This document shows, piece after piece, positions 9,512-45,171 of a stretch of DNA of 64,000 bases. Where the stretch lies: assembly GCA_035569495.1 (NCBI GenBank), contig DATMMX010000012.1:176602-240601 (forward strand). Direction: 5' to 3'. The translations under genes were made by a program, and so were the position numbers. The first letter of the stretch is position 1. Every line of letters starts with the position of its first letter. A model generated the notes under the pieces. That model was not told the origin of the DNA. It did no database searches and saw nothing but the letters and a program-made list of their open reading frames with translations. Source of the DNA: Candidatus Angelobacter sp. GTDB taxonomy: Bacteria > Chloroflexota > Dormibacteria > Aeolococcales > Aeolococcaceae.

Positions 9512-9543
9512 CCACCCCCGCGCCCCGCGCCACGACGCCCCGC

Positions 9544-10419: not shown

Positions 10420-10439
10420 TGTGGCCAGGTGGTGGGGGG

Positions 10440-11171
10440 TCAGCGCAGGCTGAGCCCACCATCGCAGGCGACCACCTGCCCGGTGACGTAGTCCGAACGC
10501 ACCAGCCCGAGGCACAGCGTCGCGACGTCGTCCGGGATGCCGCTGCGCTGCAGCGGCGCCATCACCTTGACCGCGTCGCGCAGGTCGCTCCAGTCCGCCG
10601 TCCACGGCGTGTCGATCAGCCCCGGCGCAACCGCGTTGACGCGCACCGTTGGCCCGAGAGCGTTGGCGAGCAGCAGGGTGAGGTGGTGCACGGCCGCCTT
10701 GCTCGCCGCGTAGGGAATCGAGCTGCCCGAGGGACGCAGCCCCGCCAGCGAGCCGACGTTGACGATGCAGCCGTCGCCGCTCTCGCGCAGCGCGGGAATC
10801 GCCGCCTGGGTGACCTGCCAGGTGCCGATCACGTTGACGTCGAGGATGCGGTGCCACACCTCGGGGGTGACGGCGTCGAAATCCGTGTGCGGGATGCGCA
10901 CGGTGGTGCCGGCGTTGTTGACCAGCACGTCGAGACGCCCGTAATGACTCAGCGCCTGGGTGACGATGGCGCGCGCGTCCCGCGCGTCGGCGACGTTGCC
11001 GCGCACGTACAGCGCGTCGGGCAGGCTCGCCGCCACCGCCTTTCCCGCCTCCACCGACGACGACGAGTTGACCACGACGCGCGCGCCCTCGGCGGCGAAG
11101 GCCCGCGCCACCGACTCGCCGATGCCGCTCGACGACCCGGTGACCAGGACGACCTTTCCCTCGATCTGCAT
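10440..11171 (-). CDS. SDR family NAD(P)-dependent oxidoreductase
   Basis: Start MQIEGKVVLVTGSSSGIGESVARAF. Rossmann motif TGSSSGIG, NNAG motif, and catalytic YAASK (Y-x3-K). Confidence 0.85.
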   Translation of the reverse strand: MQIEGKVVLVTGSSSGIGESVARAFAAEGARVVVNSSSSVEAGKAVAASLPDALYVRGNVADARDARAIVTQALSHYGRLDVLVNNAGTTVRIPHTDFDAVTPEVWHRILDVNVIGTWQVTQAAIPALRESGDGCIVNVGSLAGLRPSGSSIPYAASKAAVHHLTLLLANALGPTVRVNAVAPGLIDTPWTADWSDLRDAVKVMAPLQRSGIPDDVATLCLGLVRSDYVTGQVVACDGGLSLR

Positions 11172-30400: not shown

Positions 30401-33400
30401 GCGCTGGTGATCCCGGCGGCCTCGTCGACGGTGAGCACCAGGGTCTGGGTCGCGTTGGGGCTCACCCCGTTGTTGGCGGTGAGGTGGATGTTGTAGGTGC
30501 CGCCCGTGCCCGTCCCCGGTGTGCCGCTGATGGTCGCGGTGCCGTCGTTGTTGTCGAGGAAGGTCAGGCCGGTGGGCATGGTGTCGGGCTCGGTGATCGC
30601 GGCGTGCGGGAAGCCCGTGGTGGTGACGTTGAAGCTGCCTGCGGTGCCGACGGTGAATGTCGCCGTGCTGGCACTGGTGATTGCGGGCGCCTGGTCGATG
30701 GTCAGCGTGAACGGCTGGGTTGCGTCGCTGCCCACGCCGTTGGCGGCCTTGAAGCTGATGTGGTAGACGCCGCCGGTGCCCGCGCCCGGTGTGCCGCTCA
30801 GCGTGCCCGTACCGTTGGCGTTGTCGGCAAAGGTCACGCCACTCGGCAGCGCGCCACTCTCGGTGAGCGCGGGTGTCGGTGTGCCGGTGCTGGTCACCGT
30901 GAAGGTGCCCGCGGCGCCGACCGTGAACGTCGTGTTGTTGGCGCTGGTGATCGCGGGTGCCGCGTTGACCTGCAGGGTGAAGCTCTGCACGTCGTCAGGC
31001 GTCTGGCTGTTGTGCGCCGTGATCGACAGCGGGTAGGTGCCCGCCGTGCCCGCCGCGGGTGTGCCCGCGAGGGTTGCGGTGCCGTCGTTGTTGTTGGTGA
31101 GGGTGACACCGCTCGGCAGCGAGCCGGTCTCGCTGATGGTCATGGGCGTCGAGCCGGTGGCGGTGACCGTGAAGGTGCCCGCGCTGCCGACCACGAAGGT
31201 TGTGTGGTTGGCGCTGGTGATGTGCGGCGCGCCGGCAACTGTCAGCGTGAAGTTCTGCGACGCGGCGGGGGCCACGCCGTTGTTGGCACCGAAGGTGATC
31301 GGGTAGCTGCCCGCGGTGGTCGACCCGGGGTTCCCGCTCAGCGTCCCGGTGCCGTTGCCGTTGTCGGTGAAGGTCACGCCGGTGGGCAGCGTGCCCGTCT
31401 CGGTGATCACCATCGACGCTCCGCTCGGGAAGCCGCTGGTGGTGACGCTGAAGGTGTTCGGCGTGCCGATGTTGAAGGTGGTGGCGTTGGCGCTGGCGAT
31501 CGCGGGAGCCTGGTTGACGGTGAGCGTGAAGCTCTGCGTCCCGGGCGAGCCGATGCCGTTGGTCGCGGTGATGGTGAAGGGATACGTTCCGCCGGTGCCC
31601 GCGGCCGGTGTGCCGGCCAGGGTGGCGGTGCCGTCACCGTTGTCGTGGAAGGTCACGCCACTGGGCAGCGTGGCAGCGCCGTCGCTGAGTGTCGGCGTCG
31701 GCACACCGCTGGTGGTCACGGTGAAGGTGCCGGGCGCGCCCACGGTGAACGTCGTGCTGTTGGCGCTGGTCACCGCCGCCGCCTGGTCGACGGTGAGGGT
31801 GAAGCCCTGGGTCGCGTTGGAGCCGACGCCGTTGGACGCGGTGATGGTGAAGGGATACGTCCCGCCCTGGCCCGCGCCCGGTGTGCCGGCGAGGGTGGCG
31901 GTGCCGTCGCCGTTGTCGTGGAAGGTCACGCCGGTGGGCAGGGTGGCGCCGCCGTCACTGAGACTCGGCGCGGGGACGCCGGTGGTGCGCACCGTGAACG
32001 TGCCCGGGCTGCCCACCGTGAAGGTGGTGGCATTGGCGCTGGTGATCGCCGGCGGCTGGTCGACGGTCAGGGTGAAGCTCTGCGTCCCCTGGCTGCCGAG
32101 GCTGTTGTTCGCGGTGATGGTGAACGGATACGTCCCGCCCTGGCCTGCGGCCGGTGTGCCGGCGAGCGTTGCGGTGCCGTTGCCGTTGTCGACAAAGGTC
32201 ACGCCGGTGGGCAGGGTGGCGCCGCCGTCACTGAGGGTCGGCTTCGGGAAGCCGAGGGTGGTGACGCTGAAGGTGCCCGGCGTTCCCGTGGTGAACGTCG
32301 TGTTGTTGGCGCTGGTGACCGACACGGCCTCGTCGACGGTGAGCGTGAAGGGCTGCGTCGCGTCGGTGCCGATGCCGTTGTGCGCCGTGATGGTAAAGGG
32401 ATACGTTCCGCCCTGGCCGGAGCCGGGGTTGCCGCTCAGCGTGGCCGTGCCGTCGAGGTTGTCGACGAAGGTCACGCCGGTGGGCAGGGTTGCACCGCCG
32501 TCGCTCAGCGTCGAATGCGGGAAGCCACCGGTCAGCACCGAGAAGCTGCCCGGGGTGCCCACCGTGAAGACGGTGCCGTTGGCGCTGGTGATGCTCGCCG
32601 GCTCGTTGACGGTGAGCGTGAAGGCCTGCACCGAGTCGGAGCCGATGCCGTTGTGCGAGGTGAACTGCAGCGAGTATTGGCCGCCGGTGCCGGCATTGGG
32701 CGTGCCGCTGAGCACGTGCGTCGGCGCGTCGTAGGTGACGCCGCCGGGCAGCGAGCCCGAGGTCAGCGTGATGCTCGGCGCCGGGTAGCCGCGCGAGGTG
32801 ATCGTGAACGTGCCCGGGCTGCCGACGGTGAACGTCGTGTTGTTGGCGCTGGTGATGTGCGGCGCCTCGTTGACGGTGAGCGTGAAGCTCTGGGTGTCGT
32901 CAGGAGTCACGCCGTTGGTGGCGGTGATGGTGAAGGTGTAGACGCCGCCGGTCCCCGTCGCCGGGGTCCCGCTCAGCAACCCGCCGCTGCTCAGCGTGAC
33001 GCCGTTCGGCAGGGTGCCGGTCTCGCTGAACGTCGGCGCCGGGTAGCCGGCCGCGGTGACCTGGAAGCTGCCCGCGGAGCCCGCGACGAACGTCGCGTGG
33101 TTGGCGCTGGTGATGTGCGGGGGCTGATCGACAGTGATCGACGCGTTGACCGTCTGGCCGTCGATGGTGGTCGGCACGCCGTCCACGCCGCCGGTGGCGC
33201 CCGCGGTGTACGTCGTGCTCGTCGCGCCGCTCGACAGGGTGCCCGACGTCGAGTTCACCGTCCCCAGCGCTCCGTTGGCGAAGGTCACCGGGATGCCGTC
33301 AGGCAGGTGGTGCGACGGCGCAATGGTCGCACTGGTGTTGGTGTGGTCGAGGTCGGCGGTGATCGTCGAGGTCTGGTTGACCAGGATGGTGCTCGGCGAC

Positions 33401-34794
33401 GCGGTGCTGGTGAGGATCTGCCAGGGGCTGACCGTGATGTTGCTGGACGCAGCGGTGGTTGGGCCCGCGTTGACGCCCCACCAGTCGTTGGTGGCGTTCG
33501 CCGAGCCGGGGCCGCTGGGGACGAAGTAGGCCTGGTTGGCGGTCGTCGCCGTGTTGTTGTACAGACGGCTGTAGTGCATCGTCAGCACGCCGGCCTGGTC
33601 GTTGAAGATGGCCCCGCCGTGGCCGGCGTTGGTGCCGCTGCCGGTCGCGGAGTTGCCGGTGAACGTCGAGCCGGTGACGGTGATCGTGCCGGCGTTGGCG
33701 AGCGCACCTCCGTCGGAGTTGGTGGCGGTGTTGCCGGTGAACGTGTCGCTGGTCACCGTCATCGTGCCACCGGTGTTCTTCACGGCACCGCCGCGGCCGC
33801 CGGTGTTGCCGGTGAACGACGAGGTGCTGATGCTGAGCGAGCCCGCGCCGCCCTGCTCCACGGCGCCGCCGCTGGCGGTCGTCGAGTTGGTGCCGAAGCT
33901 CGACCCGGTGATGCTTGCGGCAGGGGAAGTGGCGGTTCCGGCGAACTTGACCGCCCCACCGCCGCCCGCGGCGCTGTTGCCGGTGAAAGTCGAGCTGCTG
34001 ACCGACAGGGTCGGCGAGCCGCCACCCAGCGTCTCCTGGTCGATGGCACCGCCCACCGAGGCGCCGGCGGAGTTGTTGGTGAACGTCGAGCCGCTCACTG
34101 TCACGGCGCCGTACACCTGGCTGATGGCCCCACCCGGCGTGGTGGTGGCCGGGCCGTAGATGACGTTGTCGCTGAAGGTGGAGTTGGTGATCGTGGTGTT
34201 GTCGGGCGTGTGCACCGAGTCGAGCACGCCGCTGATCAGCCCGGCGCCGCCGAACTGCGCGGTCCGGCCGCCCGAGACGGTGACCCCCGTGAGGGTGATG
34301 TTCGTCCCGCCGTTGGTGGCGGGGTCGATGTTGAAGACGCGGAAGCAGGTCGACGTCGCCGACGAGGTGCACGTGGGCGGCTGCAACGCGTGGATGGTCG
34401 TGCTCGCCATGCCCGCACCGTTGATGGTCAGCGACTGGCCGCCGCTGGGTGCGACCTGAAGCTCGCCGAGGGTGAGGTTGTAGGTGCCCGACGGCACGGT
34501 GATGGTGTTGGTGCCACCCGCGTTGTTGCTCGCCTCGATGGCCGCCCGCAGGCTGCAGGTTCCCGCCGTGTTGCAGGTGGTGCTGTTGCTCGGCGTGACG
34601 TGGAGATCGAGAGTGGTGTCGACCGTGAAGTTGGTCGCGTTGGCAACCAGGGTGTGGGAGAGCACACCGAAGAGACCTCCGCCGAGAGCGAGGCCGGACG
34701 CGGCGACCATTGCCAGGCGGCGTGGCTGCAACCACCGCCCGACGCGTCCCGGCCGCGAGCGACCGGACTGAGCCGTCGTGCTTCTGTGCTTCAT
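27421..34794 (-). CDS. Giant (2457-aa) secreted adhesin-like protein: CSLREA/beta-helix N-terminus, about 18-20 tandem Ig-like domains (PF05345-like), Big_3-like domain, C-terminal Gly/Asn/Ser-rich region
   Basis: Strong RBS GGGAGGAGAG before the ATG at 34794. Signal peptide present. CSLRAAIEASN motif. Repeated TFT/SFT-GN-S beta-helix rungs. Then 88-aa units ...ITSANNTTFTVGSAGTFTVTTGGYP.P.L.ESGTLPSGVTF.DNGDGTATLSGTPA.GTGGVY..TITA.NGVGSD.TQSFTLTV... repeat about 18-20 times. Confidence 0.85.
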   Translation of the reverse strand: MKHRSTTAQSGRSRPGRVGRWLQPRRLAMVAASGLALGGGLFGVLSHTLVANATNFTVDTTLDLHVTPSNSTTCNTAGTCSLRAAIEASNNAGGTNTITVPSGTYNLTLGELQVAPSGGQSLTINGAGMASTTIHALQPPTCTSSATSTCFRVFNIDPATNGGTNITLTGVTVSGGRTAQFGGAGLISGVLDSVHTPDNTTITNSTFSDNVIYGPATTTPGGAISQVYGAVTVSGSTFTNNSAGASVGGAIDQETLGGGSPTLSVSSSTFTGNSAAGGGGAVKFAGTATSPAASITGSSFGTNSTTASGGAVEQGGAGSLSISTSSFTGNTGGRGGAVKNTGGTMTVTSDTFTGNTATNSDGGALANAGTITVTGSTFTGNSATGSGTNAGHGGAIFNDQAGVLTMHYSRLYNNTATTANQAYFVPSGPGSANATNDWWGVNAGPTTAASSNITVSPWQILTSTASPSTILVNQTSTITADLDHTNTSATIAPSHHLPDGIPVTFANGALGTVNSTSGTLSSGATSTTYTAGATGGVDGVPTTIDGQTVNASITVDQPPHITSANHATFVAGSAGSFQVTAAGYPAPTFSETGTLPNGVTLSSGGLLSGTPATGTGGVYTFTITATNGVTPDDTQSFTLTVNEAPHITSANNTTFTVGSPGTFTITSRGYPAPSITLTSGSLPGGVTYDAPTHVLSGTPNAGTGGQYSLQFTSHNGIGSDSVQAFTLTVNEPASITSANGTVFTVGTPGSFSVLTGGFPHSTLSDGGATLPTGVTFVDNLDGTATLSGNPGSGQGGTYPFTITAHNGIGTDATQPFTLTVDEAVSVTSANNTTFTTGTPGTFSVTTLGFPKPTLSDGGATLPTGVTFVDNGNGTATLAGTPAAGQGGTYPFTITANNSLGSQGTQSFTLTVDQPPAITSANATTFTVGSPGTFTVRTTGVPAPSLSDGGATLPTGVTFHDNGDGTATLAGTPGAGQGGTYPFTITASNGVGSNATQGFTLTVDQAAAVTSANSTTFTVGAPGTFTVTTSGVPTPTLSDGAATLPSGVTFHDNGDGTATLAGTPAAGTGGTYPFTITATNGIGSPGTQSFTLTVNQAPAIASANATTFNIGTPNTFSVTTSGFPSGASMVITETGTLPTGVTFTDNGNGTGTLSGNPGSTTAGSYPITFGANNGVAPAASQNFTLTVAGAPHITSANHTTFVVGSAGTFTVTATGSTPMTISETGSLPSGVTLTNNNDGTATLAGTPAAGTAGTYPLSITAHNSQTPDDVQSFTLQVNAAPAITSANNTTFTVGAAGTFTVTSTGTPTPALTESGALPSGVTFADNANGTGTLSGTPGAGTGGVYHISFKAANGVGSDATQPFTLTIDQAPAITSASTATFTVGTAGSFNVTTTGFPHAAITEPDTMPTGLTFLDNNDGTATISGTPGTGTGGTYNIHLTANNGVSPNATQTLVLTVDEAAGITSANNTTFTVGTLGSFDVTTSGFPPAAISETGALPSGVTLVDNHNGTATLSGTPAGGTGGVYPITIRAHNGVGSDATQAFTLTVDEAPSITSANNTTFTVGSAGTFTVTTGGYPKPGLGESGTLPTGVTFTDNNDGTGTLSGTPATGTGGVYPISFTASNGVGSPAPQIFTLTVNEAAAVTSANSTTFAVGTAGSFGVTTRGYPHPSLSDGGATLPTGVSFTDNGDGTATLAGTPATGTGGVYTFTITAHNGIGGDGTQSFTLTVNEAPAITSASSTTFTAGSAGTFTVTTRGFPHPAITETGTLPSGVSFLDNGDGTATLSGTPATGTGGVYPISFKAHNTSGPDATQSFTLTINEAAAVTSANNTTFTVGASGSFGVTTRGYPAPSLGETGTLPSGVTFADNHDGTATLSGTPATGTGGVYPITITAHNGVGSDGTQSFTLTVDEASAFTSANHTTFTTGQAGNFPITTRGYPHPSIGESGALPGGVTLTDNGDGTAKISGTPNAGIGGTYPITLTAHNGVGTDGTQSFTLTVDQPAAITSANNTTFTAGSANSFAVTTSGFPAPSLTETGTLPSGVSFTDNGNGTGTLSGNPATGTGGVYHISFKAHNGVGGDATQSFTLTVNEAAAITSADHTQFQVGASGTFTVTTRGYPIPSLGESGALPSGVTFTDNHDGTGTLAGTPATGTAGTYHITFTAHNGVGSDGTQAFTLQVGPAPTTTTVTASTTSPTFGSPDTFTATVAPQPPSSGTPAGTVTFAVDGTNTAVVTLVNGQAQWTTSSLQQGAHTISAAYSGQTNTFQPSTGSIDVNTGCAVVYNTRIAGSLTISGGSACINGARISGGVSVSGGASVSIVNSTIGSGLTSNGAHLLTVCLSSVGSSMQVSNSTGFVLIGSNGDDTAMPCAGNSINGGVTLNGNTGGLEVGGNPSIKGAVTVNNNVLAGSAVDAENGAPEIEHNSIKGSLSCSGNAPAPINDGAPNTVSGARAGQCGAPGF
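28242..33117. repeat. Degenerate tandem repeat, 264-bp unit (Ig-like domain array) inside the giant gene
   Basis: An 88-aa periodicity is visible in the protein and as periodic antisense ORFs (28040.., 28457.., 29423.., 30080.. and others). Confidence 0.7.
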
Positions 34795-34870: not shown

Positions 34871-35398
34871 TTAGGATCTGGCTGGGAAGATGCCCTGCAG
34901 GGCGATGCAGAAACTCAACGTGAGGTAGGGCATCATGTTGTTGTGCGGCAGGCTGGCGCCCGTGATGGACAGGGCAGCTGGGTTCATCTGAACATTGGCG
35001 GGTGTGGTGTAGAGCTTCTGCTGGCCGCGCTGGAATGGCGACGTCGACCACACCTGCCCCGCCGGGCTGTTGCTCGTACCCGTCGCGTTGTTTGCCTGGG
35101 CGTTGTGGCTGTGCGCGGCCATCTCGCTCTGCAGCAGCGTCACGGTCTGCTCCCCGCCGACCTCGCCGAGATCACGCAGGCTCAGGCCGTTACCCTGGCC
35201 GAAGTTCATCGGCGCCGAGCCCTGCAGGTTGGGCAATGCGAAATTGCTCTTCCCGTCGCCGCCGTACGTCGTGCCGAGCAGGGAGAAGAGCGCGGTGTTC
35301 TGCGAGATGGGCATGAGCTGCCCATTGCACATCGCCCAGCCGGCGGGAGCGAAGTTGAAGCCGAAGATGCGAATCTCAGCGACGAATGGGTTGGCCAT
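34871..35398 (-). CDS. Phage tail-collar domain protein (MdpB / T4 gp12 collar-like), paralog 1
   Basis: 175 aa. RBS GGAGGT. Sequence MANPFVAEIRIFGFNFAPAGWAMCNGQLMPISQNTALFSLLGTTYGGDGKSNFALPNLQG matches the tail-collar fold signature (FAG.FAP.GW..C.G.LL.I..N.ALFSLLGTTYGGDG...FALPDLRGR). Confidence 0.8.
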   Translation of the reverse strand: MANPFVAEIRIFGFNFAPAGWAMCNGQLMPISQNTALFSLLGTTYGGDGKSNFALPNLQGSAPMNFGQGNGLSLRDLGEVGGEQTVTLLQSEMAAHSHNAQANNATGTSNSPAGQVWSTSPFQRGQQKLYTTPANVQMNPAALSITGASLPHNNMMPYLTLSFCIALQGIFPARS

Positions 35399-35415
35399 TT
35401 TCTACAGACCTCCGC

Positions 35416-35913
35416 TCAGTTCCGGCTCGGGAAGATGCCCTGGAGGGCGATGATGAAAGGCAGCACCAGGTACGGCGACATGTTCTCGTGAGGCTGGCTG
35501 CCACCGGCGTTGGCCACGGCTGCGGGCGCCATCGTCGTGTCCGGCGTGGCCGCGTACGCCGCGGAGAGCTGGGTGGCCCAGAAGTTCCCGTTGGGCGAGC
35601 CCTGGTCGGCCGCCTGCGAGCCGGCGTTGGGAACGTGATTGTGCGCCGGCATCTCTTGGATGGTCAGGGTGTGGGCGGCTTCACCGCCGGCTTGGCCCTG
35701 GACAAGCCCGTTGCCCATGTGGAAGGGGATCCGGCCGCGCAGGTCGGGTAGTGCGAAGTTGACCCGCCCATCGCCACCGTAGGTGGTCCCCAGGAGCGAG
35801 AAGAGGGCTTGGTTCTGGTTGATGGGCAACAGCCCTCCGTCGCAGAACGCCCATCCCTTGGGCGGGAAGTTGAAGCTGATGACCTTGATCTCGCCGAGGA
35901 ACGGTTCACTCAT
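35416..35913 (-). CDS. Phage tail-collar domain protein (MdpB-like), paralog 2
   Basis: Internal start MSEPFLGEIKVISFNFPPKGWAFCDGGLLPINQNQALFSLLGTTYGGDGRVNFALPDLRGRIPF. RBS GGAGAAG. The ORF to 36117 is an over-extension. Confidence 0.8.
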   Translation of the reverse strand: MSEPFLGEIKVISFNFPPKGWAFCDGGLLPINQNQALFSLLGTTYGGDGRVNFALPDLRGRIPFHMGNGLVQGQAGGEAAHTLTIQEMPAHNHVPNAGSQAADQGSPNGNFWATQLSAAYAATPDTTMAPAAVANAGGSQPHENMSPYLVLPFIIALQGIFPSRN

Positions 35914-35938
35914 TGCGCTGGCTTCTCCGGATTGCCGG

Positions 35939-36442
35939 TCACGTCGGCGACGGGAAAACGCCGAACAGCGACAGGATGAAGTTGATGACCCCGAAGGGCA
36001 CCATGTTGTCGTGCGGCTGGCTGTTGCCCGCTCCACCAAACGCGGTTGGCGCCATGACGGTGCCGTCGTTGGTCGCCGCGTACTCGGTGTAGGTCGGGCT
36101 GGCGGCCCAGAACCCATTGGTCGGACTGCTCGCGCCCTGGTTGTTGGTCGACGCGCTGGCCGTGTGGGGATGAACCGGAAGCTGCGAGGTGGTCAGCGTC
36201 ACCTGCTCCACGCCGCCCGTCTGGGCGATGGTGAAGCCGTTGCCCTGGTGCAGGGGGATGCGGCTGCGCAGGTCCGGCAGCGCAAAGGTGCTCTGGCCGT
36301 CGCCTCCGTAGGTGGTGCCGATCAGGTTGAACAGGGTCTCGTAGTTGGAGATCGCCAGGAGCGAGCCGTCACAGAAGGCCCAGCCCACGGGCGCGAAGTT
36401 GCCCGCGAACATGCGGATCTCGCCGACGTATGGCTGGCTCAT
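35939..36442 (-). CDS. Phage tail-collar domain protein (MdpB-like), paralog 3
   Basis: 167 aa. RBS GGAGGA. Sequence MSQPYVGEIRMFAGNFAPVGWAFCDGSLLAISNYETLFNLIGTTYGGDGQSTFALPDLRSRIPLH. Confidence 0.8.
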   Translation of the reverse strand: MSQPYVGEIRMFAGNFAPVGWAFCDGSLLAISNYETLFNLIGTTYGGDGQSTFALPDLRSRIPLHQGNGFTIAQTGGVEQVTLTTSQLPVHPHTASASTNNQGASSPTNGFWAASPTYTEYAATNDGTVMAPTAFGGAGNSQPHDNMVPFGVINFILSLFGVFPSPT

Positions 36443-36774
36443 CCGTCATCCTCCGAAGGCGCCTGGTCGGTGCGCCTGCTGAATACGGCTTCGAGCTGCA
36501 GCCCTGCGGCGTCGCGTCCGATGGGGACGAGGAAGAGTTGCAGCGCGCCGAGCACGGGGTGGTCCAGGTCGTAGGTACGCTGCACCGGCGGCGTCTCCAC
36601 GGGGAGCCGGAAGTGGAGCGCGAACTGCTCGGTTCCCGGGGAGGTGGGCCCATCGACCGTCTCGAAGAGCACAGCGGGGACGGTGACCACGTCGCTGACG
36701 TGGATGGTGAAGGTCGAGCCGACCTGCTCGACTAGGTCGGCCTTGGTGTGCAGCTTCTGCGTTGCGATGCTCAC
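36439..36774 (-). CDS. Small hypothetical protein co-transcribed with the tail-collar genes
   Basis: About 111 aa. Likely GTG start with a strong upstream AAGGAGGA. The stop overlaps the paralog-3 start by 4 nt, and the start overlaps the GNAT stop by 4 nt. No recognisable domain. Confidence 0.45.
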   Translation of the reverse strand: MSIATQKLHTKADLVEQVGSTFTIHVSDVVTVPAVLFETVDGPTSPGTEQFALHFRLPVETPPVQRTYDLDHPVLGALQLFLVPIGRDAAGLQLEAVFSRRTDQAPSEDDG

Positions 36775-37307
36775 GGGTTCTGCCGTCCTCCTTGTGTCGG
36801 CTGCTTGTCGCCCACCACCCGCTCCATGAGGATGTAAAGGCCACGCTCCTCGACGGGCACGAAGCCGAGCCGCTCATAGAGCCGGCGCGCCCCGTCGTTG
36901 AACATCTCCACGTGGAGGCGCATGGGCAGGCCGCGCTGTTCCGCCTCCTCCATCAGCTCGCGCGCTAGGAGCGTGCCGATGCCGCGGTTGCGGTATGGGG
37001 CGAGGACGGCGATGTCGAGCAGGTGGATCTCGTCGTCGCCGCGCTGCACGTAGAGGCGGCCGACCGGCTCGCCGTCGACCAGGATCAGGTCGAAGTCGGC
37101 GCCCGCGTGGTTGGTGGCGTAGTGGACCGACTGGGCGAAGAACTGCTGGTCGAGGAACGCCTGCTTGGTGGCGTGGTCCCAGTCGACCATGGCCATCTCC
37201 GCGTCGCGCGTGCTCGCGTACACCTCGCGGACGAAGGCTTCGTCTGCCGTGGTGATTGCTCGCAGGCTGACATTCAGACCAGCGGGTGCGTCACTCCTGG
37301 CGCCCAC
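36771..37307 (-). CDS. GNAT family N-acetyltransferase
   Basis: 178 aa. Acetyl-CoA binding motif RNRGIGTLLARELMEEAEQRG (R/Q-x-x-G-x-G/A). Confidence 0.75.
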   Translation of the reverse strand: MGARSDAPAGLNVSLRAITTADEAFVREVYASTRDAEMAMVDWDHATKQAFLDQQFFAQSVHYATNHAGADFDLILVDGEPVGRLYVQRGDDEIHLLDIAVLAPYRNRGIGTLLARELMEEAEQRGLPMRLHVEMFNDGARRLYERLGFVPVEERGLYILMERVVGDKQPTQGGRQNP

Positions 37308-37812
37308 AGACCCCGACCGCCATTTGGCTGCCCCATGTCGCCGCGGTGCCCGCCCTCCCTTTGAGGACCGCCGTCACCACCGTTGCCCGCGCACTATAAC
37401 GCGGGCCTCTCGGCGTGCCAACCACCTCCGAAGACGGAATTGCGGCAGCCACTGTGACGATTTGGGGATGAGCGGCGACTTCTTGCCAGGTTCGGGTTGA
37501 ACCTCTGCAATCAGGAGTATCACGTTGCCGCACGAGCGAGCAGGAAGGCGACGCGATAGCAGCGATCTGACCGGTGGTCAGGGTTCCCGTCAGGAACGAC
37601 CGTAAAAAGTCGTGAAGGCATCGCAACCCAGCCCTGAACGCTCCGATCCCACCACCTCGAACGAGCTTAGCCCGGCTGCCCTCACGCGCAAGCACACACC
37701 CTTGTGGTTCGGCGCAGGAACCGTCTTGCGCGATGTTCGCTTCCCACCTATTATCCGGCGCAATACCCGGCTCCCCCGGGCGACAGGAAGAGGTATTGAG
37801 GGGACGGCCGCC

Positions 37813-40800
37813 ATGAGCGTCCAGCATGTAGAAGCGCGCGTCTCGCTTTGGCGGCGTGCCGTGCACTCGTTGGTGATGGGATCGGTGCTGCTCGCAGCGA
37901 TGTCGGTGGAGATCCTGCAGGGACCGGCCAGCTCGGTTGCCAGCGCAGCCGGGCCCACCCCGGCGTTCGGTTCCCCGGTGGCCTACGCGAATGGGGCCAT
38001 CGCGCTCAACGGCGTCGCGGTCGCCAACGACAAGAACGGCGGCTTCGACATCGTGACGGCGAACGCGACTGCGGGCAACGTATCCTCGCTGCAGCCGAAC
38101 AGGAACTCGGCCGGCGTACCCGACGGCACGTTCGGAAGCGCAGTGCTTTCCACTGCCAGCCCCGGCGTCGTCGCGCTGGCCAGCGGTGACTTCAACGGAG
38201 ACGGCATCCCGGATCTCGTGGTGGCCACGGGCAACAACACGCTGAGCGTGATGATGGGCCAGGGCAACGGGGCGTACGGACCCGTCACCGCACTGCAGAA
38301 CATCCCTGCCTACAACGTCGGCACCCCTCAGGCGGTGTTCGCACGCGTCGCCGACCTCAACGGCGATGGCAAGCAGGACGTGGTGGTCGCGGTGAACACC
38401 GGTTGCGTGTGCCAGGCGGAGATCGCGGTGTGGGTCGCCCTCGGCAATGGTGACGGCACCTTTCAGCCGGGGGCGGAGGTCAACGTCCCCGAAGCCAGCC
38501 TCGGCTCGAATCCGAGCGTCAGCGGCCTGGCCGTGGCGGACGTCACCCACGACGGCAAACCCGACATCGTCGTCGCCCTGAACGACACCGGACATGGGTT
38601 CGACGACGGACAGTTCTGGGTGCTGGTCAACCAGGGCAACGGCACCTTCGCCCAGGGCGTGCAGGCCGGCGACGCGCACGGGATACGCAGCTCGGGACCC
38701 GGCGAGGCGATGGCCTCAGCGGACCTGAACGGCGACGGCGCCGCGGACGTGGTGACAGTCCAGCAGCCGCTGACCGAAGCCTCCCGCGGCATCCACGTCT
38801 TCCTCAACCAGGGAAGCGGCACCTTCTCGACAGGCACGTACATCGCGGACCCCAATCTGACCAACGGAACCACAGCGTCCGGCTCCATCCACAGCATCGC
38901 CATCGTGGACGTCAACGGCGACAAGTTCCCGGACATCGTCACCGCGGTGAGCAGCAACCTCAACGGGAACGGCATCTCCCTCTACGTCAACAACGGTGAC
39001 GGGACCTTCGCCGCCCCAGTCTTCTTCAGCACGCCGGGATTCTCGCCGGACACCATGGCCATCGCGGACGTCAACCAGGACGGCAAGCCGGACTTGGTCC
39101 TGGGCTCGCAGACCAACGGGAACAACCTCCACGTCATGCTCAACCAGACCGGCCCAGTTGGGGGCGACGTCACCGACCCGGAGTCTCGCGGTGGGGGATC
39201 CACCTGCTGGCCGTGCCTCGCCAAGCGCCTCGACAGGGCGCGGAATCGTGGCCGCTTCCCGATCTCCCTTCCGTTTGGCACCTTCTGGCACAGCTTCTCC
39301 GACGTGTACGTCCCGGCGCGCGGATTCCCGCTCGCGGTGACGCAGACGTACAACTCCAGCGACGCGACCGACTACGGGCTCGGCCCCGGCTGGTCTTCCA
39401 GCCTGTTCAGCAAGCTCGTCGTGACCGGAACCAGTCCCAATCAGAGCGTGACGGTGACCGCGGAGAACGGTAGCCAGGTGGTCTTCCATCAGTCGGGCAC
39501 CGCCTGGACGACCGCCCCGCGCATCCAGGCCACGCTGGTGCAGAACGGCGACGGTACCTGGACGTTCACGCGCGGTGGAACCGACACGATGACCTTCAAT
39601 CCGACCGGCCAGATCGTGAGTGAGCAGGACCTCAACGGGAACGTGCTCCGGTTCGCCTACACGGGCGGCCTGGTCACCGGCCTGAGCCATGACGACATGG
39701 CCCACTCGGACGTTCGCTCGCTGTCGATCGTCTGGAACACCGCGACGCCGGCCCACATCACGTCGATCACCGACAACAACGCCGGCCTCAACCGTCAGGC
39801 GGCCTTCACCTACGACACCGATGGCCAGCTCACCGACATCGACTGGACGACCGGCGGTCTGCCCGCCACCGACATCAACGAGCACTTCGAATACGAGACC
39901 AGCAGGCCACTCAGCCATCGCCTGACGGGAATGCGCGACGGGAGAGGGTTCTGGGTGACCCAGGCGTACGACACTCTTGGAAGGGTCACGAGCCAGACGA
40001 TCGACCCGACCGCAAAGGACTCCGGCGGGTTGAACGAAGTCACGACGTACGACTACTCGGTGCCGACCCAGGTCACCGTGACCGACCCCAAGGGCAACCG
40101 GACGACCGACACGTACTCCTACGGCCTGTTGATGTCCCGCACCCTCGGCGTGGGGAGCCCGCAGGCGGCCACGTGGCAGTACAGCTATGACATGTCGACG
40201 ATCGGCCCCACCTCGGTCGCTGACCCGAACGGGCACACCACGCGCCGGCAGTACGACAGTTACGGGAACGAGCTGAGCGTGACCGACGCGCTCAACCATC
40301 AGACGACGACCCAGTACAGCACCGCCGACGCCCCCTTTCACCAGCCGACCACCGTCACCGACGCGCTCGGCGTCATGACGACCTATACCTACGACTCGCG
40401 GCGCAATCTCACGTCCGTATCCACGCCCCTGGTCGGCAGCAGCCCGGCACAGACGCAAACCACCACGTACTACCGCGACGGGACGACCACCCATCCCGAC
40501 GACGTGACGCGCATCGTGGACCCAGGTAGCAATACGTGGTCGTACGGCTACGACGCGTATGGTGACGTGACTTCGGCGAGGGACCCCCTCCAGCACATGT
40601 CCACCAGCACCTTCAACGCGGATGGGTGGCGCACCGCATCGACGACCCCGCGGGGCCACAACGGCTCGTGCAACTGCGCCGCACAGTTCACCACGACATA
40701 CAGCTACACCGACCCGGTGAGCGGACAGGTGAACTATTTCGGCGACGCGCGTGTGGTGACCGATCCTCTCGGCCACAGCACCACGTATGGCTATGATGCG

Positions 40801-42912
40801 CAGCGCAACCTGACCAGCGTCAAGGATGGCGACGGCAACGTCACCTCGTACGCGTACGACGCCGCCGGTCAGCAGACCACTGTGACACGGCCGGACAGCT
40901 CGACGCTGCGGACTCAGTACGCGGCGGACGGCACGACGACCCGCCAGATCGACGGTGCGAACAACGCCACCAGCTACGGCTACGACGCGCTGGGACGGGT
41001 CACCTCGGTGACCGACCCCCTCAACAGAACCACGTCGATGACCTACGACGGCACCGGGAACCGCCTGGCGGTCGTCGACGCCCAGTCGCAGACGACCACC
41101 TACGCGTATAACGCGGACAATCAGGTCACATCGATTCAATACAGCGATGGTGTGACGCCCAATGTCACCAGCATCGCCTATGACGCCGATGGGCAGCGCA
41201 CCGGGATGACCGACGGAACCGGGACCTCCAGCTATGTCTGGGACTCCCTGCACCGGATGACCTCCTCCACGGATGGGGCCGGGAACACCGTGTCCTACGG
41301 CTATGACCTCCGAGGCGAACTGACAAGCCTCACCTACCCGGGCGTGACCACGCCGGTCACCTACACGTACGACCCGGAGGGGAATATCCTCCAGGTCACC
41401 GACTTCTCGGGCTCGACGGCCTACGTCGCCCTCGACTTCAACGGGAACACCCTCAACGTGAGCTTCCCTCGCCCGAGCCAGACGATCGACTTCTACACCT
41501 ACAACAACGCGGATCAACTGACCGGCCAGAGTTTCACGGTGGGCAATCTGACGACGTATGCCTCGCTGTCGTACGCGCGTGACGGGAATGGCCAGGTGAC
41601 CTCCGAGACGGACACCGGTCTGCCAGCACCGGCCGCGCCGACCTACACGTACAACTCGCTGAACCAGCTCTCATCGAGCAGCGGCGCCTCGTACACGTAC
41701 GACGCGGCCGACAATCCTGTGAAGCTGGCCGGCGGGGCCACGCAAGCCTTCAACGCGGGGAACCAACTGTGCTGGGCCTCGCCCGGAGGGGGCACCGGTA
41801 CCTGCACCTCGCCTCCCAGCGGCGCCACCGCCTTCAACTACGACAGCCGAGGGAACCGAACATATGGACCCAGCCCTGTCGGTACTCTTTCCTACGGATA
41901 TGACCAGGCGAACCGCCTCACCGCCGTCAGTCAGGGGCCCACAGCCCAGGTGTCCATGACCTACAACGGTGATGGCCTCCGCATCACCAAGGTATCCGGC
42001 GTGGGTCACGCGATTACAACCCACAACTACGTCTGGGACGTCCACGGAGCCCTCCCCCGCCTCCTCGCCGACGGCACGACCCGCTTCATCTACGGACCCG
42101 GTGGTACCGTCATGGAACAGGTCAACGGCTCCACCGCGTCCTACTTCCACCACGACCAGCTCGGTAGCACCCGCGCCATCACCGACGGCACCGACACCCC
42201 GATCGCCACGTACAGCTACGACGCGTACGGCAACACCGTGGGCTCGACGGGAACCTACACGAATTCCTTCCACTTCGCCGGCGAGTACCTGGACTCGGAC
42301 ACCGGCCTCTACTACCTCCGCGCTCGGTACTACGATCCCAGCACAGCTCAGTTCCTGACCCGTGACCCAGCGGCGCCGACGACGCGGGCGCCGTATGACT
42401 ACGTTGGCGACAACCCCCTAAATGGATCCGACCCCATTGGGCTCGACAGCAATTGCTCCATCTTTGCCTTCTGGGCATCTGACTGGTGCGCACGAGAGGG
42501 TGCTGGTACGACCACGGGTAAAGTCGTGATTGGTGCTGGCGTGGTCGTCGCTGGAGTTGCCACTGGCGGTGTCGCACTCGGCTGGTACGGTGCCGCGGCG
42601 GGCGCTGGTGCCGGAGCAGAAATCGACACCACGACAGTGGTACCGGCGATCGTCAACGACGTGGCGGCGGCGAGCGAGGATGTCGTGCCCACGGTGGGGG
42701 CTGCTGGCGAGGGCCCAATCTCCACGGGTCTTCAACGCCAGATATGTGAGCACTTGATAAAACTCAATGACTACATTCAGAATCCACTCAATAGCGACAC
42801 CACAGGCCGCCTGGCCAACGCCATCAACAACGGACTGGGTAACCCGAACTCGATCTACGAGGGTCGTATCAATCACTTGTTGAGCGAGATAAGGGCCTTC
42901 AACAGTCAGTGA
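37813..42912 (+). CDS. RHS-repeat polymorphic toxin: signal peptide, FG-GAP/VCBS beta-propeller region, YD/RHS repeat shell, DPxGL boundary, novel C-terminal toxin domain
   Basis: ATG at 37813 inside ORF 37612..42912. N-terminus MSVQHVEARVSLWRRAVHSLVMGSVLLAAMS... Six FG-GAP-like repeats (DFNGDGIPDLVVA, DLNGDGKQDVVVA, DVTHDGKPDIVVA, DLNGDGAADVVT, DVNGDKFPDIVTA, DVNQDGKPDLVLG). Dozens of YD repeats (YGYDALGRVTSVTDPLNRTTSMTYD...). The RHS core ends at YYLRARYYDPSTAQFLTRDP...YDYVGDNPLNGSDPIGL. A 165-aa C-terminal tip follows, with a glycine-zipper hydrophobic segment. Confidence 0.9.
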   Translation: MSVQHVEARVSLWRRAVHSLVMGSVLLAAMSVEILQGPASSVASAAGPTPAFGSPVAYANGAIALNGVAVANDKNGGFDIVTANATAGNVSSLQPNRNSAGVPDGTFGSAVLSTASPGVVALASGDFNGDGIPDLVVATGNNTLSVMMGQGNGAYGPVTALQNIPAYNVGTPQAVFARVADLNGDGKQDVVVAVNTGCVCQAEIAVWVALGNGDGTFQPGAEVNVPEASLGSNPSVSGLAVADVTHDGKPDIVVALNDTGHGFDDGQFWVLVNQGNGTFAQGVQAGDAHGIRSSGPGEAMASADLNGDGAADVVTVQQPLTEASRGIHVFLNQGSGTFSTGTYIADPNLTNGTTASGSIHSIAIVDVNGDKFPDIVTAVSSNLNGNGISLYVNNGDGTFAAPVFFSTPGFSPDTMAIADVNQDGKPDLVLGSQTNGNNLHVMLNQTGPVGGDVTDPESRGGGSTCWPCLAKRLDRARNRGRFPISLPFGTFWHSFSDVYVPARGFPLAVTQTYNSSDATDYGLGPGWSSSLFSKLVVTGTSPNQSVTVTAENGSQVVFHQSGTAWTTAPRIQATLVQNGDGTWTFTRGGTDTMTFNPTGQIVSEQDLNGNVLRFAYTGGLVTGLSHDDMAHSDVRSLSIVWNTATPAHITSITDNNAGLNRQAAFTYDTDGQLTDIDWTTGGLPATDINEHFEYETSRPLSHRLTGMRDGRGFWVTQAYDTLGRVTSQTIDPTAKDSGGLNEVTTYDYSVPTQVTVTDPKGNRTTDTYSYGLLMSRTLGVGSPQAATWQYSYDMSTIGPTSVADPNGHTTRRQYDSYGNELSVTDALNHQTTTQYSTADAPFHQPTTVTDALGVMTTYTYDSRRNLTSVSTPLVGSSPAQTQTTTYYRDGTTTHPDDVTRIVDPGSNTWSYGYDAYGDVTSARDPLQHMSTSTFNADGWRTASTTPRGHNGSCNCAAQFTTTYSYTDPVSGQVNYFGDARVVTDPLGHSTTYGYDAQRNLTSVKDGDGNVTSYAYDAAGQQTTVTRPDSSTLRTQYAADGTTTRQIDGANNATSYGYDALGRVTSVTDPLNRTTSMTYDGTGNRLAVVDAQSQTTTYAYNADNQVTSIQYSDGVTPNVTSIAYDADGQRTGMTDGTGTSSYVWDSLHRMTSSTDGAGNTVSYGYDLRGELTSLTYPGVTTPVTYTYDPEGNILQVTDFSGSTAYVALDFNGNTLNVSFPRPSQTIDFYTYNNADQLTGQSFTVGNLTTYASLSYARDGNGQVTSETDTGLPAPAAPTYTYNSLNQLSSSSGASYTYDAADNPVKLAGGATQAFNAGNQLCWASPGGGTGTCTSPPSGATAFNYDSRGNRTYGPSPVGTLSYGYDQANRLTAVSQGPTAQVSMTYNGDGLRITKVSGVGHAITTHNYVWDVHGALPRLLADGTTRFIYGPGGTVMEQVNGSTASYFHHDQLGSTRAITDGTDTPIATYSYDAYGNTVGSTGTYTNSFHFAGEYLDSDTGLYYLRARYYDPSTAQFLTRDPAAPTTRAPYDYVGDNPLNGSDPIGLDSNCSIFAFWASDWCAREGAGTTTGKVVIGAGVVVAGVATGGVALGWYGAAAGAGAGAEIDTTTVVPAIVNDVAAASEDVVPTVGAAGEGPISTGLQRQICEHLIKLNDYIQNPLNSDTTGRLANAINNGLGNPNSIYEGRINHLLSEIRAFNSQ

Positions 42913-42921
42913 GCTCTCAAT

Positions 42922-43401
42922 GTGATTGTGGAGAACCCGATGGACGGATTGTCTCAACCAGCGGACGGACGGCGATTTGTCTTCTCGCGGATTCACAGCC
43001 TGTCATCGTGGCCGACGGACGCGAACATTCCAGGAGAGCAGTTCTGTCTGCTCCTGCTGTGCGGCGATGCTCTACCAGATGCTGCCGCCATTGAGGCATT
43101 CGCGTCGCGCGCTCTAACCCAAGGGATGGTGTATCTATCTGTCTGGGGTAGGGCGCCACACCGGATCGAGGAAGTTGTGGACGAGGTGTACGTCGACACG
43201 GCGGCGGAGGAACGATCAACGCTGGTGACGACGGCACATACCAATCTCGACGAGGCAATAGCATTCTTCGAGAACGACGTTCGACCTCCGAAAGCTCAAT
43301 GTCATCTCTGGTGGGTGGTCGCGGTCGGGGACGATGACGCAGCCGAGAGGACTTTGAGCGCGTTGGAGTCTCGTCGGACCGTGGGGCGGCTTGCGTGCTG
43401 A
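42922..43401 (+). CDS. Putative cognate immunity protein for the RHS C-terminal toxin
   Basis: 159-aa ORF starting 10 nt after the RHS stop, on the same strand. It shares the low-GC composition (about 58% vs about 72%) of the toxin tip. No known domain. The call rests on position and composition. Confidence 0.5.
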   Translation: MIVENPMDGLSQPADGRRFVFSRIHSLSSWPTDANIPGEQFCLLLLCGDALPDAAAIEAFASRALTQGMVYLSVWGRAPHRIEEVVDEVYVDTAAEERSTLVTTAHTNLDEAIAFFENDVRPPKAQCHLWWVVAVGDDDAAERTLSALESRRTVGRLAC

Positions 43402-43455: not shown

Positions 43456-45171
43456 TCAGCGGCTTGTTGCTGGCCCCTCGGAAGGCGCTCGGCGCGGACG
43501 CACCCCCGCGCCGACCTCCTTGGCCGCAGCAGTCTGCCGCGCCAGCACAGGAACGATGCGGCGGGTGCGCGCCACCATGGTGGCGGCGCGGACCAACTGG
43601 CGGGAGACCATCTTCGGGCCCGGGCCGCCGGGGACTTCTTTGCGGCGCAGGGAGCGGTCGACGTCGAAGAGTTCGAGGACGTCGTCGTCGAAGAGTGGGG
43701 AGTGCTGGCGCCAGGCGTCGAGGTCCATGTCGGTGAAGGTGCGGCGCTGTCTCTGCAGGTCGCGGACGATGCGGCCGACGATGCGGTGGGCGTCGCGGAA
43801 GGGCACGCCCTTGACGACCAGGTAGTCGGCGACGTCGGTGGCCATCAGGGAGGGATCGCTGGCCGCGGCGCGCAGCGCGTCGGTGTCGAAGCGCAGCACC
43901 TTCACCACGTCGGTGACGATGGCCACGGTCTGCATGGCGACGTCGACGGCGTCGAAGAAGGGCTGCTTGTCCTCCTGCAGGTCGCGGTTGTACGCGAGCG
44001 GGAGTCCTTTGAGGGTTGTCAGCAGCGCGACGAGGTCGCCGATGGTGCGCCCGGCGCGCCCGCGGACCAGCTCCAGCACGTCGGGATTCTTCTTCTGCGG
44101 CATCAGCGACGAGCCGGTGGCGTAGGCGTCGGGCAGCTCGGCGAAGCCGAACTCGCTCGACGTCCACAGCACGATCTCCTCGCCGAGGCGGGACAGGTGC
44201 ACCATCAGCAGCGCGCACGCGGCGGTGATCTCGACGGCGAAGTCGCGGTCACTCACGGCGTCGAGGCTGTTGGCGCTGATCGACTCGAAGCCCAGCTCCT
44301 GGGCGACCATGCGCCGGTCGATGGGCAGCGTGGTGGCGGCCAGCGCCCCGCTGCCCAGCGGCAGCACGTTGCTGCGGTCGTGCGCATCCTCGAGGCGCTC
44401 GACGTCGCGCTGCAGCATCTCCACGTAGGCGAGCAGGTGATGGGCGACGCTGACCACCTGGGCCCGCTGCATGTGCGTGTAGCCCGGCATCACCGCGTGG
44501 CGATGCTCGTCGGCGCGGCGCCACAACGCCTCCTGCAGCGACGCGATGGCCAGCATCAGGTCGCGGGAGATGCGCTTGGCGTAGAGGCGCAGGTCGGTGA
44601 CCACCTGGTCGTTGCGGCTGCGCCCTGTGTGCAGCTTGCCGGCGACCTCGCCGATCTTCTCGCCGAGACGGCGCTCCACCGCCATGTGGATGTCCTCGTC
44701 GCCGGGGTCGTCGGTGAACTCGCCCTTGTCCAGCTCGCGCTTGATCTCGCGCAGGCCGCGGTCGATGGCGGCGTGCTCGTCGCGGCTCAGCACGCCGATG
44801 GAGCGCAGCATCTTGGCGTGCGCCTGCGAGCCGGCGATGTCGTCGGGGTAGAGGCGGCGGTCGATGGCGATGCTGGTGGTGTACTCCTCGACGCGCCGCG
44901 CCGTCCTGGAGCCGAGCCGCCCCGACCACGCCTTCTCGGCGCGCGCGCCGTTTTCGTCAGGCGTGTCGGCAACTCTCCCGGCCGGCTCGGTCGCGGCGCG
45001 CCGCGCGGTGGCGGCCATGGTGTGGTCGTGCACCGCCTGCTTGGCCTGGTCGTCCTCGGCGTTGCGCTGCTGGCGCTTCTCGGCGCGCGACGGCTTGGGT
45101 GCGCGCGCGCTGCTCAGTGGTGCTTCAGGATCACCCGCCTCCGCACCGACGATGCGGATGCCCCTAGCCAC
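43456..45171 (-). CDS. argH: Argininosuccinate lyase
   Basis: Fumarate-lyase signature GSSLMPQKKNPD. The N-terminal region AWSGRLG corresponds to the usual LWGGRF. The annotated start overlaps argG, but the true start may be the internal Met (MAATARR...), about 50 codons downstream. Confidence 0.9.
   Translation of the reverse strand: MARGIRIVGAEAGDPEAPLSSARAPKPSRAEKRQQRNAEDDQAKQAVHDHTMAATARRAATEPAGRVADTPDENGARAEKAWSGRLGSRTARRVEEYTTSIAIDRRLYPDDIAGSQAHAKMLRSIGVLSRDEHAAIDRGLREIKRELDKGEFTDDPGDEDIHMAVERRLGEKIGEVAGKLHTGRSRNDQVVTDLRLYAKRISRDLMLAIASLQEALWRRADEHRHAVMPGYTHMQRAQVVSVAHHLLAYVEMLQRDVERLEDAHDRSNVLPLGSGALAATTLPIDRRMVAQELGFESISANSLDAVSDRDFAVEITAACALLMVHLSRLGEEIVLWTSSEFGFAELPDAYATGSSLMPQKKNPDVLELVRGRAGRTIGDLVALLTTLKGLPLAYNRDLQEDKQPFFDAVDVAMQTVAIVTDVVKVLRFDTDALRAAASDPSLMATDVADYLVVKGVPFRDAHRIVGRIVRDLQRQRRTFTDMDLDAWRQHSPLFDDDVLELFDVDRSLRRKEVPGGPGPKMVSRQLVRAATMVARTRRIVPVLARQTAAAKEVGAGVRPRRAPSEGPATSR

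Follow-up and report, generated by a model that had tools for sequence, protein, structure and literature searches.

A three-helix putative toxin domain at the end of an RHS protein from Candidatus Angelobacter sp., with a DUF7684-like candidate immunity gene beside it

The window examined here, a 64,000-nucleotide stretch of contig DATMMX010000012.1 from Candidatus Angelobacter sp., carries on its + strand an RHS gene encoding 1699 amino acids (37813-42912, counted from the ATG at 37813), followed directly by a small open reading frame (ORF). The locus encodes a polymorphic toxin of the FG-GAP/RHS type, a kind that is already well known, and its C-terminal cassette stands out from the rest of the gene in composition. 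Its identification as an RHS polymorphic toxin with an immunity gene has high confidence. What is new is the payload. The end of the protein belongs to an unnamed family of three-helix putative toxin domains with an invariant histidine, aspartate and arginine. Its partner here is DUF7684-like, an unrelated partner of ~92-100 residues is found elsewhere in the family, and a reusable module, a cysteine pair plus a glycine zipper, stands before the toxin domain. The general picture of polymorphic toxin systems is left unchanged by this locus.

The conserved domain (42697..42909, + strand), delimited by alignment and by an AlphaFold2 model, makes up about the last 70 residues of the protein. The model has three helices and a predicted local distance difference test (pLDDT) score of 86. 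An exhaustive HMMER search of 1.84 billion representative sequences (E <= 1e-3) with the C-terminal tip as query found 40 representative proteins. The close matches (P0013-P0015) cover only about the last 75-100 residues, and many weaker matches extend over the Gly/Ala-rich segment that precedes the domain; a word-indexed homologue search with the whole tip gave no match. An alignment of 37 family sequences has the consensus GLxxQLxEHxxKLxxYxxNPxxxDNxGxLxNA........IIxGRIxxLxxQIxNF. Six alignment positions are invariant (H24, D39, L44, A47, R62 and L66), all of which are kept in the window copy, and the invariant H, D and R (H1652, D1667 and R1690 of the window protein) fall within the motif ...EHxxKLxxYxxNPxxxDNxGxLxNA...GRIxxL.... 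The closest named homologue of the family occurs in Curtobacterium. Neither the tip, the 37 family members nor their profile has a significant match in Pfam, NCBIfam or the sequences of the PDB, and the helical domain has no fold match. Matches of the tip or family to Vir_act_alpha_C, ABC_tran_CTD and OprM (E 0.085) were dismissed as coiled-coil noise. A HEPN-type Rx4-6H motif was rejected on the ground that the histidine after GRI, judged by eye, is not conserved.

In the Zhang/Aravind framework a polymorphic-toxin domain is defined by its occurrence, at the C-terminus, behind several alternative trafficking modules, and the helical domain is found on a variety of carriers. For example, it closes other RHS proteins after DPxGL (P0014/L016, P0034, P0049, P0051 and others). 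In P0013/L015 it stands immediately behind a PT-HINT domain (PF07591, E 1.7e-14), and in P0055 immediately behind a HINT-like C-terminal end (...VLVHNS) that has no Pfam match. It also ends a WXG100_2-containing protein (P0033, E 2.7e-13) and is present on short proteins with a signal-peptide-like start (P0052 and P0037), and orphan cassettes with the domain adjoin remnants of RHS core ends at two loci (L013 and L018). Judged from these sequences, the last ~70 residues are a conserved unit that travels with an immunity gene, in the manner of a polymorphic-toxin tip. Most likely this helical domain is the actual toxin, acting in the cytoplasm.

The candidate immunity gene (42922..43401, + strand), recognised from its ORF, homologues and synteny, opens nine nucleotides past the stop of the RHS gene in the same reading frame, separated from it by TGA and three codons (42913-42940). 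Read from the GTG at 42922 it encodes 159 amino acids, and from the ATG at 42940, 153. The ATG is the more likely start, since it has GGAG 6 nucleotides upstream and agrees with the N-termini of homologues. The ORF is intact, with a coding-like codon-position composition. Its product has no transmembrane segment (maximum Kyte-Doolittle hydropathy over 19 residues, KD19max, 1.46) and a pI of 4.7, and is predicted to be a soluble, acidic alpha/beta protein with a fold like that of the Mur ligase C-terminal domain. Eleven homologues were found at 46-58% identity. Against DUF7684 (PF24733), for which the gathering cut-off is 26 bits, the score of the window protein is 16.1 (E 0.009). Weak matches to the same family occur in 12 of 12 aligned members (best E 5.2e-6), four of which carry a precomputed PF24733 label, and the protein appears to be weakly related to DUF7684 as a distant relative. 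An earlier reading of the stretch made from its letters alone (the sequence-only reading) had recognised no domain in either product, which stands for the tip, for which there is no named family, and is amended for the immunity candidate by this relationship. A literature search on DUF7684 found no paper.

In four independent loci of the NAINNG toxin subclade a DUF7684-like gene directly follows the toxin gene, with an overlap or a gap of up to ~35 nucleotides, whatever the carrier. These are the window, L008/L009, L015 and L016. In L008/L009 the toxin is an RHS protein, and its helical domain shares 76% identity with the window copy; in L015 it is a PT-HINT carrier (70%), and in L016 a protein of more than 2000 residues with an RHS-type core end (64%). 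The syntenic DUF7684-like homologues are 44-57% identical. Other DUF7684-like genes are orphans, for example beside integrases (L001) or together with HicAB in groups of small ORFs (L002), and orphan occurrence among small ORFs is the typical pattern of immunity genes. The downstream ORF is very probably the cognate immunity protein because of its synteny with the same toxin subclade in four loci together with these orphans, so that the proposal of an immunity gene made in the sequence-only reading is strengthened by comparison. Alignments of the toxin subclade and of the immunity family were scanned against 185,579 species-representative genomes and neither returned a homologue, and tblastn detected no second copy of the tip or the immunity gene elsewhere in the window. 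An Imm40 gene is found downstream in L008/L009.

A recurrent family of ORFs of 78-91 amino acids, with a C-terminus of the form ..EPTEYGLKLEALLDEVNRHGF, adjoins DUF7684-like genes (L002, 7674-7949; L005, 2088-2351; L006, 124-387; L008, 2320-2556). It accompanies the orphan homologues in L002, L005-7 and L008 and is probably another orphan immunity family.

A different partner is associated with the main clade of the toxin family (motif AFDNKGFLKNAP). In these loci the toxin gene is followed by an acidic family of ~92-100 residues (consensus ...D.YW.I...P..TLGQL...), whose ORFs overlap the toxin stop or start within a few nucleotides of it (L010, L012/13, L018, L020 and L021). This family has no Pfam match, and hhalign gave no relationship between it and the DUF7684-like family (probability 0.09%). 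By sequence, the type of immunity gene follows the clade of the helical domain, so that this domain rather than the zipper seems to be what would be neutralised. Members of the helical family are mostly basic, with a median pI of 9.3, while the medians of the two partner families, 4.4-4.5, are acidic. Basic toxins with acidic partners are common where the toxin binds nucleic acids, and the pattern is only suggestive here.

The tip as a whole, counted after DPIGL, has 155 residues, not the 165 first given for it, and consists of two modules, a cysteine pair with a glycine-zipper segment and then the three-helix domain. The Cys-pair linker at its start (DSNCSIFAFWASDWCAREGAGTT, 42445..42513, + strand) begins DSNCSIFAFWASDWC and is common to P0032 and, more loosely, L008. 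It is followed by a hydrophobic Gly/Ala-rich segment of 35 residues (TGKVVIGAGVVVAGVATGGVALGWYGAAAGAGAGA, 42514..42618, + strand), identified by hydropathy and motif count. This segment has a KD19max of 2.22, four GxxxG motifs inside it and a fifth just upstream, and one GxxxGxxxG (G49AAAG53AGAG57 in tip numbering). An acidic linker recognised by inspection of the sequence (EIDTTTVVPAIVNDVAAASEDVVPTV, 42619..42696, + strand) joins it to the helical domain.

The zipper is far less constant than the domain behind it. A strongly hydrophobic segment (KD >= 1.6 in a 19-residue window) lies upstream of the helical domain in 21 of the 46 members in which the domain was detected, and the remaining members have a weakly hydrophobic Gly/Ala-rich sequence there or none. 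Where the domain is fused to PT-HINT (P0013/L015), the hydrophobic segment is upstream of PT-HINT, which thus sits between segment and toxin, and self-cleavage by HINT would part the two. The zipper also precedes other domains. For example, P0032, a metagenome protein of 223 residues, and the window protein both have DSNCSIFAFWA.DWC plus the zipper and are 51% identical across residues 1-89 of the tip, and a protein encoded at 1310-2173 of L018 shares 'EFNRYPV + zipper' with P0017 and has a different C-terminal domain. Because the same module precedes different C-terminal domains, these sequences suggest that the glycine zipper serves delivery or entry in general and is accessory to the toxin; its role is probably membrane insertion or entry. 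The sequence-only reading had taken the zipper as a sign of a membrane-active or membrane-anchored effector. The segment is indeed present, and the conserved, immunity-matched element is the last ~70 residues instead, given that the zipper is variable and shared with other C-terminal domains.

Two side observations concern these relatives. P0032 starts with ~90 tip-like residues (DSNCSIFAFWANDWC plus a glycine-rich hydrophobic segment) and ends in an unrelated C-terminal sequence without a Pfam match. L018, a metagenome contig (1-3916), is an array of orphan RHS-tip cassettes with two successive core-end remnants (..NRYAY..DP.N.TDPSGL), which bear different tips and have small ORFs after them.

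The tip might alternatively be a glycine-zipper toxin that depolarises or forms pores in membranes, like the C-terminal toxin of Tse5, TspA, EsxX and TelE, with the C-terminal helices serving for oligomerisation or regulation and the soluble protein acting as a chaperone-type immunity factor before export. The length, hydropathy and motif content of the zipper and its counterparts in the 21 members would suit such a toxin, and a resemblance to coiled-coil or hairpin modules is seen in the helical domain. RHS-borne pore formers are also known, as in the case of Tse5 of P. aeruginosa, which is delivered by a type VI secretion system (T6SS) and has a membrane-bound immunity protein, Tsi5 (PMC9637101, PMC10684867). 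Further, the glycine-zipper pore toxin EsxX is neutralised in the cytoplasm by the soluble immunity protein ExiAB, which sequesters it before export (PMC12744356). Against this, the zipper sequence is not conserved, and a strongly hydrophobic segment is missing beside the toxin domain of several members; cleavage in the PT-HINT fusion would detach that domain from the zipper; the zipper module is borne by other C-terminal domains; and the type of immunity family tracks the subclade of the helical domain. In addition, there is no membrane immunity gene at the locus, where the sole downstream ORF is soluble and the next gene is the convergent argH. The orphan immunity homologues show what in the EsxX system is the pattern of immunity against an incoming toxin and not of a pre-secretion factor, and according to the discussion of the same paper the producer is already protected by an RHS cage, as is the case for Tse5 (PMC12744356). 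A pore-forming tip is considered unlikely on this balance.

A break in composition separates the cassette from the rest of the gene. Most 2-kb bins of the window have a total GC of 0.70-0.75, and its housekeeping genes have a GC content at third codon positions (GC3) of 0.93-0.99. In the RHS body GC3 is 0.875 (sd 0.032, minimum 0.794, 139 windows of 155 codons) and total GC 0.657. In the 155-residue tip the values are 0.665 and 0.594 (z ~ -6.6 against the RHS body), and in the downstream ORF 0.654 and 0.600 (z ~ -6.9). A drop that persists through the downstream ORF had been proposed, from about 72% to about 58%. The drop is real, although the 72% is the background of the flanks, and the fall is from 65.7% in the body to 59.4-60.0%. 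Nor does it lie exactly at ~42440 as claimed. A single-change-point likelihood scan has its maximum at codon 1503 (nt 42322), ~37 codons upstream of DPIGL and inside the conserved core (RARYYDP...). When total GC is plotted, the drop is hidden by the Gly/Ala-rich stretch at 42540-42700. Background composition is regained at the convergent argH (GC ~0.71, GC3 0.93), which also ends a block of ~8.6 kb (34.8-43.4 kb) that is overall somewhat below its flanks in GC. Homologous crossover has a natural site in the final ~40 codons of that core, and the tip and immunity gene would have been gained as a cassette by recombination within them.

In the mechanism inferred for the locus, the FG-GAP propeller and RHS shell would form a Sec-exported carrier whose cage releases the tip. 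The cysteine pair and glycine zipper would insert into the target membrane and help the payload across, and the 70-residue helical domain would reach the cytoplasm and strike a target there. The soluble, acidic DUF7684-like protein would neutralise that domain by binding it. The sequences themselves show the domain architecture, the break in composition, the conserved helical domain with its various trafficking modules and the synteny of toxin and immunity genes; toxicity, the place of action, what the zipper does and how the protein is delivered are inferred. This explanation as a whole, from carrier and zipper-assisted entry to helical toxin, DUF7684-like immunity and gain by recombination, is regarded as probable; its mechanistic details are put forward tentatively, at slightly less than even confidence. 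A broader proposition, that the helical domain represents an undescribed class of very small interbacterial toxins acting in the cytoplasm, perhaps on nucleic acid or the ribosome in view of its mostly basic members and acidic partners, countered by two structurally unrelated immunity families, and that the cysteine pair and zipper are a portable, self-contained translocation module reused by RHS and other carriers, is rather doubtful at present. If true, the portable module would explain in general terms how RHS toxins exported by Sec get across the membrane of the target.

Several points weigh against a helical toxin that acts in the cytoplasm after zipper-assisted entry. At the near-invariant N40 the window copy carries T (DT for DN), it is near-neutral (pI 6.05), and for an enzyme a three-helix domain of 70 residues is small. 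The strongly hydrophobic segment is present in about half of the members, so the zipper could be functionally essential. Since soluble immunity proteins that sequester a zipper exist, a cytoplasmic immunity protein is no proof of a cytoplasmic target. The host envelope is uncertain (the unconfirmed NCBI label is Acidobacteriota, a diderm group, set against 72% GC), and Sec export alone may not reach the target. So high a GC is unexpected under that label and the closest named homologue of the toxin family is from Curtobacterium, so the assignment of the source may not be reliable. Finally, the comparative evidence is drawn wholly from metagenome fragments.

That there is no active pair at all, the tip being a decayed or non-toxic remnant such as the membrane anchor of an FG-GAP/RHS surface adhesin and the ORF an unrelated small gene in the same low-GC insertion, would fit the DT substitution, the surface-type or phage-tail-collar neighbours, the lack of secretion or delivery genes among the scanned ORFs of the window and a family known from sequence with function demonstrated for no member, but is very improbable when both ORFs are intact and coding-like, all six invariant residues are kept, the domain sits after DPxGL or HINT in the usual position of a polymorphic-toxin tip, and the pair is kept at 44-76% identity on different carriers in three other independent loci.

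The definition of polymorphic toxin systems is credited to Zhang, Aravind and colleagues (2012), and the WapA of B. subtilis was reportedly treated by Koskiniemi et al. in 2013. The window locus resembles WapA-type and other Sec-exported RHS/YD-repeat toxins in having a YD/RHS shell behind a signal-peptide-like N-terminus, a core that closes with DPxGL and a variable C-terminal toxin. It also shares with them an immunity gene directly downstream, the lack of a dedicated T6SS or type VII secretion system (T7SS) nearby and the recombinational replacement of tips. In contrast to the wall-binding repeats of WapA-type proteins, the window protein has an FG-GAP/VCBS propeller at its N-terminus, and its toxin domain and immunity protein belong to unnamed or DUF-only families.

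Tse5 is likewise an RHS cage with a tip that holds a hydrophobic glycine-rich sequence, membrane-active in Tse5 and putatively so here. Unlike Tse5 and Tsi5, the window locus has no T6SS, a soluble immunity candidate and a polar three-helix domain as its conserved part, and comparison of Tse5 with the window tip and its helical domain gave no sequence or fold match. A precedent for entry by way of a zipper is Tde1 of Agrobacterium, in which an N-terminal glycine zipper is needed to translocate the DNase across the prey inner membrane into the cytoplasm (PMC10240207). Both proteins have a GxxxG-rich segment N-terminal to a separate toxin domain, a logic of soluble cytoplasmic immunity and a proposed permeabilisation for entry. 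Tde1 differs as a T6SS cargo with an Ntox15 DNase domain, and the role of the window zipper is suggested by modularity only. EsxX, TelE and TspA also have a glycine zipper in the C-terminal toxin region (PMC12744356), but these are delivered by LXG/T7SSb and the zipper there is both the toxic element and the target of immunity. EsxX with ExiAB and ExiCD is a precedent both for soluble immunity and for two unrelated immunity families per toxin (PMC12744356); the immunity fold there is DUF5085/GyrI-like, in contrast to the Mur-ligase-C-terminal-like alpha/beta fold predicted for the window protein.

RHS and other polymorphic toxins are a main source of newly discovered antibacterial activities. 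The helical domain is compact and confidently modelled and has two unrelated candidate immunity partners, and could define a new activity. The Cys-pair and zipper module, which occurs before different payloads, is a candidate for a poorly understood step, the crossing of the target membrane by RHS cargo.

The RHS gene (37813..42912, + strand) was identified from its ORF, Pfam and NCBIfam matches and an identical database protein. The length of 1699 residues read earlier is correct when counted from the ATG; a longer, GTG-started version of the ORF opens at 37612 (37612-42912). In an exhaustive protein search the product was identical to NCBI HXA28132.1 (P0012), annotated 'MAG TPA: FG-GAP-like repeat-containing protein [Candidatus Angelobacter sp.]'. 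A Sec-type signal peptide is plausible at residues 1-45 (37813..37947, + strand), with RR, the hydrophobic core VMGSVLLAAMSVEIL and ASA followed by A at residues 43-46. The N-terminus reads MSVQHVEARVSLWRRAVHSLVMGSVLLAAMSVEILQGPASSVASA followed by AG, its 15-residue hydrophobic core has a KD of 2.03, and the assignment was made by eye.

Behind it lies an FG-GAP/VCBS repeat region (~aa 121-470, 38173..39222, + strand) with six FG-GAP/FG-GAP_3 stretches in Pfam. A Pfam DUF6531 domain (aa 483-558, 39259..39486, + strand) is on the N-terminal side of the RHS repeat region. The RHS/YD repeat shell itself (39487..42216, + strand) has 12 RHS_repeat stretches (PF05593, E 6.3e-54) and 14 YD_repeat_2x stretches in NCBIfam (TIGR01643). 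The RHS repeat-associated core domain (TIGR03696, NCBIfam E 9e-19; aa 1469-1544, 42217..42444, + strand) ends in NPLNGSDPIGL (aa 1534-1544), which matches PxxxxDPxGL, and DPIGL itself is aa 1540-1544 (nt 42430-42444). The six repeats, the shell and the PxxxxDPxGL end are as the sequence-only reading described them. Autoproteolytic release and encapsulation of the tip at such a boundary are usual and would be expected here by analogy.

With respect to delivery, Pfam found no PAAR, VgrG, MIX, LXG or WXG marker on the RHS protein, and Sec export would be the simplest route because PAAR, VgrG, LXG and WXG are missing from it. WapA-type YD proteins of monoderm bacteria are Sec-exported. Among the ~45 ORFs of the 64-kb window scanned with Pfam there were no T6SS or T7SS components, in agreement with what had been read from the neighbouring genes before. 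No integrase gene was seen among the ORFs scanned, with no systematic integrase search made, and the window contains no tRNA gene.

Downstream, the RHS cassette is convergent with argH (43456-45171, - strand), which is accompanied by argG, argD and argB. Upstream, the - strand at 34871-37307 encodes a GNAT acetyltransferase, a DUF6916 protein and three paralogous phage-tail-Collar (PF07484) proteins, with a GC of 0.64-0.68 compared with a background of 0.71-0.74. These genes, the RHS gene and the small ORF make up the lower-GC block of ~8.6 kb. Beyond the Collar genes, 27421-34794 (- strand) encodes a surface or secreted protein of 2457 residues with 18 He_PIG Ig-like repeats and Big_3_5. Antisense to this gene is a chain of shadow ORFs with high GC3 that could pass for genes. 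Elsewhere in the window, the stretch at 8000-10000 has 80% GC and strong GC and AT skew. The + strand ORF at 7788-9320 reads there as a Ser/Arg/Pro-rich shadow sequence, and the - strand ORF at 7775-10462 is ABC-transporter-like in parts, with an N-terminal portion that reads as Gly-rich.

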